This document shows positions 9,839 to 25,050 of a stretch of DNA of 64,000 bases, piece after piece. The position numbers and the translations under genes are program-made. The stretch covers positions 42,290,862 to 42,354,861 of the forward strand of contig CM074511.1 in assembly GCA_037379345.1 (NCBI GenBank). Reading direction: 5' to 3'. The notes beneath the pieces are model-generated. The model was not told where the DNA came from. It saw nothing but the letters and a program-made list of their open reading frames with translations, and ran no database searches. The first letter of the stretch is position 1; each line of letters opens with the position of its first letter. This stretch comes from Perna viridis. Taxonomy: Eukaryota.

Positions 9839-10717
9839 TTAAAGAATGATACACCGCCCTTTGGAATGTTTACGTTGCGTCTCTCGCCGTATATTGTTGA
9901 GTTCATCTTTCAGTTTTTTCTCACGATCGTCGTATTCTTTCCGTAGTCTCTCATCCGTCTCCTTTCTGATTTTTTCCTGGAGCTCCAGCATTTCTTGTTC
10001 TTTTTGTCTTTTATCTTCAGCTATTTTCTCCTGTAGAATTCGTTCAGCTTTTGCATAGTCTTCGTTTGTATAATGCGAGCCTCCATTATCACTTACCATT
10101 TTATCAATCATATTAATTAAGTTTTGGACTTGAGGAATGGCATCATTACCACTAAGTCTATTATTAAAAGCGATGTATCGGTTATTACATCTTTTTAGGA
10201 AGTTTTTCGGACATTCTGTTAATGTATTGATGAAACCCTCAATGCCGACTCCTTTGTTCCCCATATCTTCCTGGTCCCTCTCCCAGTCATCAAGACGCGT
10301 GAAGAGGACGATGACGTACTTCATTAAGGCCTCTCCGAAATGGTTAATGAAATGATTGACCGTTTCCACATCCTCCTCAGTGAACCTTCCAATAGGTACA
10401 CACAAAACTATGGCGTGTGGTCCAGGTGTCGTCAACCATATGCATCGCTTTATCTCCTCTTGGGTTTTGTCATTGCCATTCCTTGTATCGAAAACTCCGG
10501 GTGTATCGACAATGTTAATGACTTTCCCGAACCTTTTATTATCTCGAAGTCGACAAGTATCAGTTACGGATCCACCACCGCAACCAAACTTAAACTCATC
10601 CTTGCCTAAGATTACGTTCCCAGTTTTACTTTTTCCACTTCCGGTTTTCCCGATCAGAACAAGTCGAATTTCTTCATTTGATGGCTGGTGCATTTCAGCA
10701 GCTATATCTTGTGCCAT
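9839..10717 (-). CDS. GTPase of immunity-associated protein (GIMAP/IAN, AIG1 domain) copy A, about 292 aa, coiled coil plus CaaX (CIIL)
   Basis: G1 GKTGSGKS, G2 SVT, G3 DTPG, conserved box PGPHAIVL..RFTEED, G4 TRLD, G5 FNN, E/K/R-rich helical tail. A splice acceptor (ttttcag at 10721) means the ORF-track start at 10741 is intronic; first ATG in the exon is 10717. Confidence 0.95.
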   Translation of the reverse strand: MAQDIAAEMHQPSNEEIRLVLIGKTGSGKSKTGNVILGKDEFKFGCGGGSVTDTCRLRDNKRFGKVINIVDTPGVFDTRNGNDKTQEEIKRCIWLTTPGPHAIVLCVPIGRFTEEDVETVNHFINHFGEALMKYVIVLFTRLDDWERDQEDMGNKGVGIEGFINTLTECPKNFLKRCNNRYIAFNNRLSGNDAIPQVQNLINMIDKMVSDNGGSHYTNEDYAKAERILQEKIAEDKRQKEQEMLELQEKIRKETDERLRKEYDDREKKLKDELNNIRRETQRKHSKGRCIIL

Positions 10718-11072
10718 ATACTGAAAAAGAAAATTTACCACACGTTAGTGCTTTTACATAAAGAATGTTGAATCAGTAAATGACTGAGGCAACGGCATAA
10801 TTATTCAGTTATAAAAACTGTAAAAGAAAACAAAAATGGTACTTGATATGATACAGCCTTTAAGTGTAATAAAAATGAAGGAAGAAAATACATTTACCAT
10901 CTATCGCTAAAGTATGAGGTAAATTAATCGAAGCAAAACAAAACAAATAAAAACACCATTGATGATTAATCAGTACACTTAACATTTGTACATGTTTGAC
11001 GTCTTTCTACCTTATGCGCAATTTTGAAGCCAACAAAATCGTTGTTCTCTATAAATATGCAATAACACTTAC

Positions 11073-11399
11073 CACTAGTGGGTTTGCCTCGACAGTACTT
11101 AACATTTGTATCTTGTTTTTGAAATATATGATGTTTTATAGGCGTTCAAATCCTCTTTGTGAAAATTTAACTTTATGTATAAAATTAGAGACTGGAAAAT
11201 CCAGGTGATTTTAGAATCTTGTAAACAATTTATAATCCGATCATCGTTCTAAATAAAATCCATTTTCTAATTTTATAGTGGGAAAACCCGTGTATCTAAA
11301 AGTATATACCTACATGTATATAAGGAGAATGGATATGGTGAATATATATGTGTGTATATTCAGTATAGAAAAATCACGATTAAAAGTATTAATAATCAG
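11073..11399. promoter_or_regulatory. Candidate bidirectional promoter and non-coding first exons of GIMAP A (-) and GIMAP B (+)
   Basis: Minus strand: TATAAAA near 11134-11140 and donor G|GTAAGT at 11073/11072. Plus strand: TATATAAG 11317-11324, TCAGT Inr-like at 11360, donor CAG|GTTAGT at 11399/11400. kB-like sites TGGAAAATCC 11193-11202 and GGGAAAACCC 11280-11289. Confidence 0.55.
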
Positions 11400-11420
11400 G
11401 TTAGTCCTTACATAAAATTC

Positions 11421-11775
11421 ACTCCCGTGCAGGTCCGGGTGTTAAAAGAATAGGCCTGCAGCAGCGCTAAGCTTGTCGTAAAAGGCGACTAAATAGTGCT
11501 CAGAACCCTAGCCGGGGGCTAGGGCGCTCTGCCCACAGAGCAACTGGGATGTGTGTCCCAGGTGGTGGAATGGGGTACCCCAGGCGTGTTACATGCTGGG
11601 GTTGTCAGGCTATAATACAGAAAATCTGACCGCAAACCATAGTGGTGCACCGTGTTGGGAAAGATGCCACGTTCCTCGCACGTTAAAGAACCCTACTGTG
11701 GTATTCTCCCGGAGTAGGAACCATAGGGCTCCGCCACAGGAGGCTAAATTGCCCACCTCTCACCTTTATCATATA
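11421..11775 (+). mobile_element. GC-rich SINE-like element with a structured 5' head and a Deu-domain-like 3' part
   Basis: Abrupt GC-rich island with many hairpins. GCTTGTCGTAAAAGGCGACTAAA and GCACGTTAAAGAACCC...GAGTAGG...GGCTAAATTGCCC resemble invertebrate SINE motifs as I recall them (not checked against a database). Confidence 0.6.
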
Positions 11776-12048
11776 GATTTCCTCTATTATTCATTTTTTT
11801 TTCAACATGAATTTAAAATTTTGTGAATTGATATTCGTGCTGTGACGTTTGGGAGAGAGAAAGTCCGAGAATGAAAATTATCGAATTTATTTCACAGTGT
11901 GAATAATCTAAATTACACAATGGAAACATTCAATTAAACACTGCTTCTATATGAAAATATTCAGTATCTACTTCAGATATATTACCACAGATATTTTCTT
12001 GCTTTATTCTTGTATAGTTTAAGTTTCTCCTGTTGATTGTTTCAGACC

Positions 12049-12882
12049 ATGGCATTAAGAATGGTCCTGTTAGGTAAAACAGGCAATGGAAAGAGTAGAA
12101 CTGGAAATATGATTTTAGAAAAGATGGCGTTTCAGTTCAGTTGTCAGTCAGATTCAGTAACAAAAACATGTCAAAAAGAAGAATGTAATAGATTCGGAAA
12201 ACAACTAAGTATAGTGGACACACCAGGATCATTTGACACGCGTACAGACAATAGTACAGTACTGGCTGAGATACGGCGATGTATTTCTCTAACAGTTCCA
12301 GGACCACATGCCATCATACTTTGTGTTCAGATGAATAGATTTACACAGGAGGACATTGATTCCCTGAACTTTTTTGTGATCCACTTCGGTGATGCGATGA
12401 TGAAGTATGTTGTAGTGCTGTTTACGAGGTATGACGATTGGAAAAATGATCATGGCCAAAACTTGAATGATTTTATTAGATCTCTTCCTCCTCATCTACG
12501 TTCCTTTATAGATAGTTGTAATAATAGGTATGTAGCGTTTGACAATACTCTAAAGGGCACTGAAGCCGATCAACAAGTTCGTGATCTAATCACCATTACA
12601 GAACGAATGGTTCAAGAAAACGGCGGAAGTTACTACACTAACAATGACTATTTAGAGGCAGAGAGGAGGGTCAGGGAGGAGGAACAGAGAATACGACGAG
12701 AACAGGAAGAACGTGACAGGCAAATCAGGGAAGAAATTAGAAAGAAACAAGAGGAAGAAATTCGAAGGGAACGGGAACAGAAGGAACGAGAGTTACAAGC
12801 AGAAATAGAGAAGGCAAGACAAGCGGCCGCGGCTCAGCATCGGAGGAGACGTCGTCGGAAAAATGATTGCACAATACAGTGA
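12049..12882 (+). CDS. GIMAP/AIG1 GTPase copy B, 277 aa, coiled coil plus poly-Arg and CaaX (CTIQ)
   Basis: Acceptor tttcag ends at 12045, then ACC ATG G. G1 GKTGNGKS, DTPG, PGPHAIIL..RFTQED, TRYD, FDN; tail REEEQRIRREQEER...RRRRRRKNDCTIQ*. Confidence 0.96.
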   Translation: MALRMVLLGKTGNGKSRTGNMILEKMAFQFSCQSDSVTKTCQKEECNRFGKQLSIVDTPGSFDTRTDNSTVLAEIRRCISLTVPGPHAIILCVQMNRFTQEDIDSLNFFVIHFGDAMMKYVVVLFTRYDDWKNDHGQNLNDFIRSLPPHLRSFIDSCNNRYVAFDNTLKGTEADQQVRDLITITERMVQENGGSYYTNNDYLEAERRVREEEQRIRREQEERDRQIREEIRKKQEEEIRREREQKERELQAEIEKARQAAAAQHRRRRRRKNDCTIQ

Positions 12883-16993: not shown

Positions 16994-17075
16994 ACCTGGA
17001 AATTCCAGTGGTTTTATGTAAAACTTAAACCATTTTAACTCACACAATTCAGAATTATAACATATAAGAGAGAAG
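16994..17075 (+). promoter_or_regulatory. Candidate promoter and non-coding exon 1 of GIMAP C
   Basis: Palindromic kB-like CTGGAAATTCCAG (16996-17008); donor AAG|GTAGGT at 17075/17076; acceptor ttttag ends at 17896, just before the ATG. Confidence 0.45.
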
Positions 17076-17124
17076 GTAGGTTTTGTTTTTGTTTACAATT
17101 TTTTGTAATTCCGTCTTTTTAGAC

Positions 17125-17175
17125 GGGGCGTAATATGGTAATTACTATACCGGTGTCCGTCCGTCCGTCTGTCTA
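17125..17175 (+). mobile_element. Helentron/HINE-like non-autonomous element end
   Basis: Short palindrome CCGTC-TTTTTA-GACGG followed by a (GTCC)n microsatellite. Similar ends at about 15250-15325 (GACn), 52850-52925 and 62600-62680. Class assigned from memory of bivalve repeats. Confidence 0.5.
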
Positions 17176-17897
17176 TATATATATATGCATCCCTCGTTCA
17201 CACTTACATGTATCTAAATAAATTGTGCAACAGTAAACCATTGCAGTAATGCCAATAAAACTTTGCTGCATTGTTTATTTATGTTGATATAAGCTTCCTT
17301 TCAATTTTTGTAAATTTTCGATTTTGCGATTATAAGAGTTATGGGATATTGATAATAAAAAAGGGGGGTTACATTTTTGGACTAGTACTCAATAGTGGTT
17401 CCACTCATTTTCACTTTGGGAAATATTTTACCACTATTATTGTTAGCTTTATTTACAATTGTTGTAAAACTTTGATTTTGGTTTTCGAGTTTTTTTTTAC
17501 TTTATATATTTAAAAAAAGGAATTTCCGATAATTGAACAATAACTTAAAAACGCTTCAAGCAATTTTCTTTAAACCTGTTGTATTATTTTGTGTCTACAG
17601 TTACGTACCCCATCTGATTTTCCGTTAGGTAAAGGGTAACCGGTTAATACCCTCTCTTGTTCAGTAGGTTAGGGTGCTTTCTTGATGTTAAACATATCCT
17701 CTATGAGTCAGTTTACAAAACAATATTTATTCTTTCATCATATATTGTGCATATGTTGCCATGTCTCATAACTTAAGAACATGCAGTTTTCAAATTTTTC
17801 AATGCATTTATAAGGAAAATAGACAAATAATTCATTTCAAAAGGGAGGAGAGTAATATCGATACTTCTTGATATGTATCTCTGTTTAAATTTTTAGC

Positions 17898-18773
17898 ATG
17901 GTCGAACCTCCAAGTAATGAAGTACGCATTGTCCTTATTGGGAAAACCGGTAATGGAAAGAGCAAAACTGGAAACACCATACTAGGAGAAAAGGTATTCG
18001 ACTGTGGAGCTAGTGCTACATCTATAACAACCACTTGTCAATTAAGAGATGCAACCCGGTTCCAAAAGAAGATCAGTCTTGTGGATACACCAGGGGCCTT
18101 CGACAATAGGACAAACAACGAAGAAATTCAAAATGAGATTAAGAGATGTATCTGGCTGACAAGCCCTGGACCACATGCCATCATTTTATGTGTTCAAACC
18201 AATAGGTTTACCAAAGAAGATGTCGAGACAGTCGAGCACTTTTGCTCTTATTTCGGGGAAAATCTTGCGAAGTACGTGATTGTTTTATTCACTAGATTCG
18301 ACGACTGGAAAAGAGACTCTGGTAACTCAAATATACAAGGTTTTATTGATACATTACCATGTTCTTTGACAGATTTTCTACAAAAATGCAAAAACCGCTA
18401 TATTGCTTTTGACAACACATTAACCGGCGATGAAGCCAATGCCCAAGTTGAAGGACTGCTGTCGATGATTGAAAATATGGTCAGAGAAAATGGAGGTAGC
18501 CATTACACTAGCGAAGACTATCAACGCGCAGAAATAGCTTTACGGAAACAAATAATGGAGGACAAAGCCAAGAAAGAGAGGGAAATACTGGAGATGCAGC
18601 AAAGAATAAGAAAGGAAGCAGACGAAGAACTAAGGAAGATGTATGAAGAGAGAGAGCGAAAGTTGAAAGCTGACTTAGAGGAGATACGAAACGAGACAAA
18701 AAGTTCAAACAATTGGTTAGATTGTGTTATCGAAGCAGGAGTTAATCTGGTCCGAACAATATTTAGGTTTTAG
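17898..18773 (+). CDS. GIMAP/AIG1 GTPase copy C, 291 aa, coiled coil plus amphipathic C-terminal tail
   Basis: G1 GKTGNGKS, DTPG, PGPHAIIL..RFTKED, TRFD, FDN; closest to copy A; ends WLDCVIEAGVNLVRTIFRF*. Confidence 0.96.
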   Translation: MVEPPSNEVRIVLIGKTGNGKSKTGNTILGEKVFDCGASATSITTTCQLRDATRFQKKISLVDTPGAFDNRTNNEEIQNEIKRCIWLTSPGPHAIILCVQTNRFTKEDVETVEHFCSYFGENLAKYVIVLFTRFDDWKRDSGNSNIQGFIDTLPCSLTDFLQKCKNRYIAFDNTLTGDEANAQVEGLLSMIENMVRENGGSHYTSEDYQRAEIALRKQIMEDKAKKEREILEMQQRIRKEADEELRKMYEERERKLKADLEEIRNETKSSNNWLDCVIEAGVNLVRTIFRF

Positions 18774-24103: not shown

Positions 24104-24695
24104 ACCCTATATCGCATACCCTATATCTCACCCCTAGACCTATATCGCAAACGCTATATCACGCCTCTAGACTTATATCGCATACCCTATATCTCACCCC
24201 TAGACCTATATCCCATACCCTGTATCACACCCCTAGACCTATATCCCATACCCTATATCACACCCCTAGACCTATATCGCATACCCTATATTACACCCCT
24301 AGACCTATATCGCAAACCCTATATCACACCTCTAGACCTATATCACATACCCTGTATCACACCCCTAGACCTATATCGCAAACCCTATATCACACCTCTA
24401 GACCTATATCGCATACCCTGTATCACACCCCTAGACCTATATCCCATACCCTATATCACACCCCTAGACCTATATCGCATACCCTATATCACACCCCTAG
24501 ACCTATATCCCATACCCTATATCACACCCCTAGACCTATATCCCATACCCTATATCACACCCCTAGACCTATATCCCATACCCTATATCACACCCCTAGA
24601 CCTATATCGCATACCCTATATTACACCCCTAGACCTATATCGCAAACCCTACATCACACCTCTAGACCTATATCGCATACCCTATATCGTACCCC
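24104..24695. repeat. 33-bp minisatellite, about 18 copies (CCCTATATCACACCCCTAGACCTATATCGCATA)
   Basis: Direct tandem repetition with an internal CCTATATC sub-repeat; explains the 226-aa ORF 24058-24738. Confidence 0.95.
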
Positions 24696-25050
24696 TTCAC
24701 ACAGCATACATGAAGTCTGGTTAAAATATATGATATAATGAACATGACATGTTAAAATCTGTATCGCATGCTGTATCAACCTTCCACCTATATCTCCCCG
24801 TGGGCCGGTGGCCTCCAACAAATCTACTGACTGTCTAAATAATCATAGACGGTCAGCTGGAAGCTTATGACTTATAAAAAAACTACTGCGCCTGCTTTCT
24901 TTTTCATGAATCTACTACCTGTTAAATAGTTACCTTGCAATTCGAATAAGATATCGCAACTTTGTTTTCAACGTTTATTCAAGCTTATAAAATGCTGTCG
25001 ACCACTAATCGTTAGACAAACTTATATGTCAGGAACTACAGCAGATTTCT

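Follow-up and report, generated by a model that had tools for sequence, protein, structure and literature searches.

A conserved geranylgeranyl-type CaaX tail on a mussel GIMAP, one of three predicted membrane anchors in a co-expressed gene cluster

GIMAP A of Perna viridis, encoded within a window of 64,000 nucleotides (the whole stretch of DNA analysed here), ends in a geranylgeranyl-type CaaX signal which, judged from sequence comparison, is real and conserved, and which is one of the three anchor types seen among the paralogs of a conserved cluster whose genes are co-expressed (Table 1). Taken as a whole, we consider it likely that A acquires a C20 chain through GGTase-I and its neighbour B a C15 chain through FTase, with an amphipathic helix serving C, such that the conserved cluster would hold three kinds of membrane attachment. 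Of these elements, the prenylation of A is very probable and C20 is probably its main lipid; that A and B carry different lipids is likely, as predicted from published motif data.

Table 1. Features of the GIMAP cluster, in window coordinates
Feature	Position	Strand	Remarks
GIMAP A coding exon	9839..10717	-	292 aa, with its ATG at 10717; comprises the G domain, a long helix towards the C-terminus and the CaaX tail
CaaX motif CIIL of A	9842..9853	-	followed by a TAA stop codon (9839-9841); predicted to be modified by GGTase-I (from sequence, conservation and reporter values for this tetrapeptide)
Basic linker RKHSKGR ahead of the Cys of A	9854..9874	-	net charge +3 across the 10 residues before the Cys; relatives range from 0 to +4
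Intron 1 of A (GT-AG)	10721..11072	-	supported by 13 X21 reads and by X18 and X3 contigs
Exon 1 of A	11073..11220	-	5' end approximate; in-frame ATG at 11105
Stretch between divergent 5' ends of A and B	11220..11399	.	exon 1 of B ends at 11399; read depth by strand; putative promoter
GIMAP B coding exon	12049..12882	+	277 aa; ends in six Arg, Lys, Asn, Asp, CTIQ; predicted FTase substrate
Polybasic patch and CaaX motif CTIQ of B	12838..12879	+	net +6
GIMAP C coding exon	17898..18773	+	291 aa; lacks a CaaX; intron at 17076-17896
Last 18 residues of C	18717..18770	+	predicted amphipathic helix

On the minus strand, positions 9839-9880 read TQRKHSKGRCIIL-stop and close the 292-residue frame at 9839-10717, so that the protein ends RKHSKGR-CIIL. 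None of the runs that carry this sequence is catalogued as RNA, and the evidence for expression comes from the raw reads of run X21, which cover the coding exon at a depth of about 27-45 and on the strand expected of minus-strand RNA. The only joint of A in these reads is a GT-AG intron in the 5' part of the gene (11073 to 10720, 13 reads); within the coding exon they contain no joint and no alternative 3' joint, and at 9839-9880 they carry no variant letter at a depth of about 32. Since the intron lies in the 5' part only, the coding exon is free of joints and the final stretch shows no other letter, CIIL is the real C-terminus of A, and on this point sequence and RNA reads confirm the preliminary description. 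The ATG in exon 1 (11105, minus strand, in frame) could add 12 residues, and N-terminal extensions of this kind are found in the relatives P0004, P0006 and P0007. The X21 reads also include a minority of frameshift type in the coding exon, at 9969 and 10069: an inserted T within a T run (6 of 44 reads) and the absence of two bases (4 of 34 reads, with two starts). These variants, which were not found in contigs of six other runs, could be null alleles or read errors, and each by itself would cause a frameshift before the CaaX is reached. The window contains 6217 frames that end in a stop; the pattern C-x-[ILV]-L forms the end of 0.064% of them, and Cys stands fourth from the end (-4) in 3.8%.

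A falls within the AIG1 family (Pfam PF04548, 192 bits against a cut-off of 27). Alignment to GIMAP7 and GIMAP2 places G1 at residues 23-30, followed by Thr52, DTPG at 71-74, the PGPHA box with Arg111, TRLD at 140-143 and AFNN at 183-186; by this alignment G1-G5 are intact, as is Arg111 of the conserved box, whose role is catalytic. An AlphaFold model (mean pLDDT 80, pTM 0.70) comprises the G domain and a single long helix (218-286), at the end of which the CaaX tail lies outside secondary structure with low confidence. By eye, the N-terminus of A shows no signal-like sequence. The best sequence match is GIMAP7 (E 3e-46) and the best fold match is 3zjc (human GIMAP7, E 7e-21), while the best named relatives are Mytilus proteins with up to 64% identity. 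A thus resembles the mammalian GIMAPs (GIMAP7, GIMAP4 and GIMAP2; PDB 3zjc, 3lxx and 2xtp) in its AIG1 G domain, G1-G5 and conserved box, and in having a helical C-terminal extension and clustered genes; it differs in its CaaX tail, whereas the mammalian proteins have transmembrane anchors or are cytosolic.

To assess the conservation of the tails, 54 mytilid-like proteins were selected and a tree was calculated from their G domain alone, with the tails removed. Clades A (support 96/99, 18 rows), B (100/99, 13 rows) and C (100/99, 13 rows) are recovered, and tail type switches only three times. In clade A, P0033 (truncated) and P0005 (which continues past CTI, probably through a frameshift) were left out, and the 16 intact tails read CTIL in nine proteins, CSIL in two, CSIQ in two, and CIIL, CNIL and CEVL in one each. 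Cys occupies -4 in 16 of 16, Ile -2 in 15 and Leu the last position in 14, despite a variable linker in which the top residue at positions -5 to -14 reaches 25-56%. Clade B, counted without three truncated rows, ends CTLQ (6), CTIQ (2) or CSIQ (2), that is, with both Cys and Gln in all ten. Clade C has no CaaX, and C itself and the six relatives examined end in a predicted helix. The placement of P0034 (CEVL) is unstable, as it lies inside clade A in the G-domain tree and outside A+B+C in a second tree of 66 rows. The relatives represent few species, five named Mytilus species plus further contigs; within this sample, conservation in orthologs, the check that the preliminary description had named against itself, came out in its favour, with CxxL in 13 of 15 intact relatives of A and CxxQ in nine of nine relatives of B.

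The same description had presented A as a basic patch joined to CIIL. The patch exists, with four K/R and net +3 in the ten residues before the Cys, and the CaaX type is conserved; the patch is real but modest, the strong one (+6) belonging to B, and the word CIIL is private to gene A, its relatives mostly ending CTIL. Net charge before the Cys ranges from 0 to +4 in the 14 Leu-ending A proteins and from +4 to +6 in the ten B proteins, a difference whose p value of 5e-5 is overstated as the rows are related; among representatives at 50% identity the trend is weak (p 0.046). The two-signal rule for membrane association combines a lipid with charge. The charges of A and B appear to fit this rule, and the CSIQ members of clade A, a Mytilus branch (P0014, P0018) with a weak patch of net +1, go against it. 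This branch indicates that Leu is not fixed and that Gln is not always accompanied by a strong patch.

In its sequence A follows the CaaL rule, with Cys fourth from the true C-terminus, an aliphatic a2 residue and Leu last. In order to relate such motifs to a lipid, we draw on published Ydj1 reporter data, whose values describe the motif on another carrier protein with yeast and human enzymes (PMC11152559). In strains without FTase, CIIL reached 94% with yeast GGTase-I and 100% with the human enzyme (PMC11152559, Table S1), and CTIL 95% and 98.5% (PMC11152559). Eight Q-ending motifs, CTIQ not being among them, gave 0-1.5% with yeast GGTase-I and, for the two paired with the human enzyme, 0%; the same motifs reached 100% in the presence of FTase, in strains which also carry yeast GGTase-I and which therefore cannot tell the lipid of CIIL when both enzymes are present (PMC11152559). 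CTIQ, CTLQ and CSIQ are included in a prenylation-positive training set (PMC9231725). CIIL is also the tail of yeast Rho2 and CTIL that of Rsr1, and human G-gamma-7 and -12 end CIIL (PMC11152559, Table S2); these Ras-superfamily CaaX proteins bear four-residue signals identical to those of clade A, but they represent another GTPase class or protein family and the likeness is limited to the tail. The genome encodes the beta subunits of FTase (E 6e-151), GGTase-I (one exon examined, E 1e-29) and Rab-GGTase. FTase beta (L034, G000:C2:53.79 Mb) is one intronless open frame of 432 residues, unlike the genes for the other two, which are split into exons. The clade-wise conservation of the tails, together with the reporter data for CIIL and CTIL against the Q-ending motifs, makes C20 for A and C15 for B likely. 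The earlier assignment of A as geranylgeranyl-type and B as farnesyl-type is thereby upheld as a prediction, both beta genes being present in the genome.

A, B and C share 48-56% pairwise identity, match Pfam AIG1 with E values of 8.9e-57, 2e-59 and 3e-62, respectively, and are all spliced and expressed in one RNA run (X21), B and C on the strand opposite to A (joints 11399 to 12046, 9 reads, for B and 17075 to 17897, 6 reads, for C). A and B stand head to head: exon 1 of A reaches about 11220 and that of B is visible from about 11320, which leaves their 5' ends about 100-200 bases apart, and the stretch at 11220..11399 is likely to be a bidirectional promoter shared by both. Contigs of X2 and X7 join 10743 to the B acceptor at 12046 (GT-AG), which suggests a B transcript variant that starts within A and overlaps it in antisense; this joint is absent from the raw reads. 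The first intron of B contains a SINE-like high-copy repeat (11424-11754), very deep in all runs mapped, and at 24106-24696 lies a tandem array of a 33-bp unit (17.9 copies, 91% matches) crossed by open frames. The hydrophobic moment of the tail is 0.67 for C and 0.51-0.70 for six of its relatives, against 0.37 for A and 0.16 for B. A Cys in the tail of C was considered as a CaaX relic and rejected, as it is not retained in the relatives of C. In Mytilus coruscus, the near-consecutive CAC5415787, -89, -90, -91 and -92 of one contig fall, in that order, into clades A, A, B, A and C, and in M. trossulus XP_063400053, -065 and -075 of one chromosome are A, B and C. These accessions suggest that the cluster is kept in Mytilus, adjacency being read from accession order. 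A division into a catalytic A and scaffolding B and C, based on the residue three positions ahead of Arg111, which is Pro in A but Gln in the other two, was rejected, since most B and C relatives have Pro at that position and since the L100Q form of GIMAP7 is more active rather than dead (PMC9111091).

The CaaX pathway consists of prenylation followed by trimming and methylation, and K-Ras4B combines a farnesyl group with a polybasic patch. According to our proposed mechanism, GGTase-I would add C20 to Cys289 of A and FTase C15 to B, and both tails would then be trimmed and methylated. The C20 chain would hold A at membranes largely unaided by its weak basic linker. The shorter C15 chain of B would need the Arg-rich patch, a two-signal logic like that of K-Ras4B, with an expected preference for acidic membranes, for example the plasma membrane, while C would bind through its predicted amphipathic helix. 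The lipid would take the place of the transmembrane segment that anchors mammalian GIMAP1, 2, 3 and 5 at the C-terminus (PMC8201404, PMC9111091) and would position G-domain dimers on a membrane. Pairs among A, B and C are plausible by analogy, given the published human GIMAP6-GIMAP7 and GIMAP2-GIMAP7 heterodimers (PMC8201404, PMC9111091), and hetero-oligomers of A and B in particular may form, although we put this at somewhat below an even chance. Residence of A and B on different membranes is an equally tentative proposal and the weakest step of the scheme, because the CaaX motifs of human GBP1 (CTIS), GBP2 (CNIL) and GBP5 (CVLL) alone each sent GFP to the Golgi and were insufficient to set the compartment (PMC2998424).

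The human GBPs offer a close parallel in design. GBP1, 2 and 5, like A, B and C, are clustered immune GTPase paralogs in which farnesyl- and geranylgeranyl-type CaaX motifs occur beside non-prenylated paralogs; some carry a polybasic patch as B does, and prenylated GBPs recruit non-prenylated paralogs by heterodimerisation (PMC2998424). A, with 292 residues, is an AIG1 protein: Pfam returned only AIG1 and MMR_HSR1 (E up to 0.001), with neither the N-terminal GTPase nor the C-terminal domains of GBPs, and no GBP is found among its eight solved-structure matches. Going by these domain and structure matches, A may work like the GBPs and is not a member of that family. A second parallel is Arabidopsis AIG1/IAN8, which belongs to the same AIG1 family and is listed as prenylated in plant immunity; it represents the plant lineage, and the source, as far as available, describes no Leu/Gln paralog split (PMC6866125).

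CaaX tails extend well beyond this locus. Among non-self matches, 39 of 212 have Cys at -4, compared with 1.2% at neighbouring positions. Among representatives at 50% identity the count is 37 of 150 (1.6% at neighbouring positions), 28 of the 37 looking canonical; the profile search placed multi-domain proteins first, so that these 150 do not sample single-domain GIMAPs fairly. With a chicken GIMAP8-like query, and with taxa assigned from source names, Cys at -4 occurs in 20 of 27 bird and 14 of 20 reptile proteins among the 120 matches listed, and in none of the 7 fish, 8 marsupial and 52 placental proteins or the 6 from unnamed sources; mammals thus contribute 0 of 60, and a further 16 mammalian matches gave 0 as well. 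Among the matches of a separate search, Cys at -4 is present in one protein from fish (CVTQ) and one from oyster (CTIL). In the tree of 66 chosen rows, the CaaX proteins of birds and reptiles form one clade (100/99) with no mammal row, and both a mammalian loss and a sauropsid gain of the CaaX are compatible with it. A galliform CSIQ/CVIQ clade (100/100) is nested among Leu-ending copies, indicating on the tree a Leu-to-Gln switch independent of that in mussels. The galliform GIMAP8-like copies include CSIQ/CVIQ and CTIL forms as a paralog pair (P0053, P0045, P0368, P0049 and P0369 versus P0444, P0367, P0062 and P0261). Other GIMAP frames of the mussel genome (30 loci examined of 54 matches) end CTLL (two), CTLI, CRIM, CSVS and CTTQ, the last four at L025, L015, L010 and L028. 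The two CTLL frames, L024 and L026 (G000:C2:54.55-54.56 Mb), read CCTLL, a double Cys that might take palmitoyl plus prenyl. The CYTN end of L008 was rejected as a CaaX owing to a premature stop. On these counts, CaaX tails appear widespread in non-mammalian GIMAPs and are not special to the A/B/C locus.

Three other explanations bear on this reading. That CIIL arose by chance or is unused, with the Cys unmodified or the real protein ending elsewhere, could appeal to the minor frameshift-type reads, but it is very improbable in view of the 0.064% chance rate, the invariant Cys of clade A beside its variable linker, the family enrichment (37 of 150 against 1.6%) and the lack of an alternative 3' joint in the reads. 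It is less remote, though still improbable, that A is farnesylated or mixed in vivo, so that A and B share a lipid and differ in charge only. FTase is able to accept Leu-ending motifs (PMC1847700), CVLL, CLLL and CKVL depend mainly on FTase in the yeast reporter (PMC11152559), and basic residues lying upstream are reported to favour dual specificity (Hicks 2005); CIIL and CTIL, by contrast, rank among the best GGTase-I motifs at 94-100% (PMC11152559), and they match Rho2 and Rsr1, known or strongly suspected to be geranylgeranylated.

The strongest competitor, a real possibility albeit one that we judge the lesser, accepts the chemistry of our preferred explanation and departs from it in function. 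Both A and B would be prenylated, probably with different lipids, but the type of lipid would matter little, location depending instead on the basic patch, on the G domain and on dimer partners while Leu and Gln drift slowly. The Leu-to-Gln switches within clade A (Mytilus) and within the bird clade, the varied last residues of the 37 family representatives (Leu in 12, Gln in 10, Ser in 5, Met in 3, various residues in the rest) and the common Golgi pattern of the GBP1, 2 and 5 motifs alone (PMC2998424) all favour such drift. Yet all ten B proteins, with identities as low as about 58%, retain Gln, Leu persists in 14 of the 16 A proteins, where identity falls to about 60%, and switched copies constitute stable clades of their own, as in the galliform CSIQ/CVIQ clade (100/100). 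These patterns speak against the competitor.

In the literature, mammalian GIMAPs are described as having no prenylation motif (PMC3804274). The main text of a snail AIG survey (PMC7053062) does not contain the terms prenyl, CaaX or farnesyl, that of the PRENbase paper names neither AIG nor IAN, and the available parts of PMC8857920, PMC12845241, PMC10773965 and PMC6401078 hold nothing on lipid tails of GIMAPs. A full-text search, with most subscription journals and bioRxiv supplements outside its scope, returned no paper on prenylated animal GIMAPs. We regard CaaX tails as a family-wide feature for which no description in animals was found in the literature searched.

The motif as such is textbook knowledge; what gives these observations their value is that it is conserved, that it extends across the family and that the Leu/Gln split recurs. 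Work on mammals deals with transmembrane-anchored or cytosolic GIMAPs that have no lipid motifs. We speculate that non-mammalian GIMAPs carry exchangeable C-terminal anchors that form a code (geranylgeranyl; farnesyl with charge; amphipathic or transmembrane helix), and that Leu/Gln paralog pairs arose independently in mussels and galliforms because co-expressed GIMAPs are directed by the kind of lipid to different membranes, whether of the host or pathogen-containing, with mutual recruitment, thereby converging on the GBP design; in its full form this idea is rather unlikely. If true, mammals would be without this branch, and studies of mouse and human GIMAPs would have missed it. Many chicken, reptile and mollusc GIMAPs are predicted to be prenylated, and such proteins should consequently be sensitive to statins and prenyltransferase inhibitors. 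The co-expressed trio with its three anchor types would offer a ready test system, in which anchors could be switched by single residues or by inhibitors of FTase and GGTase-I.
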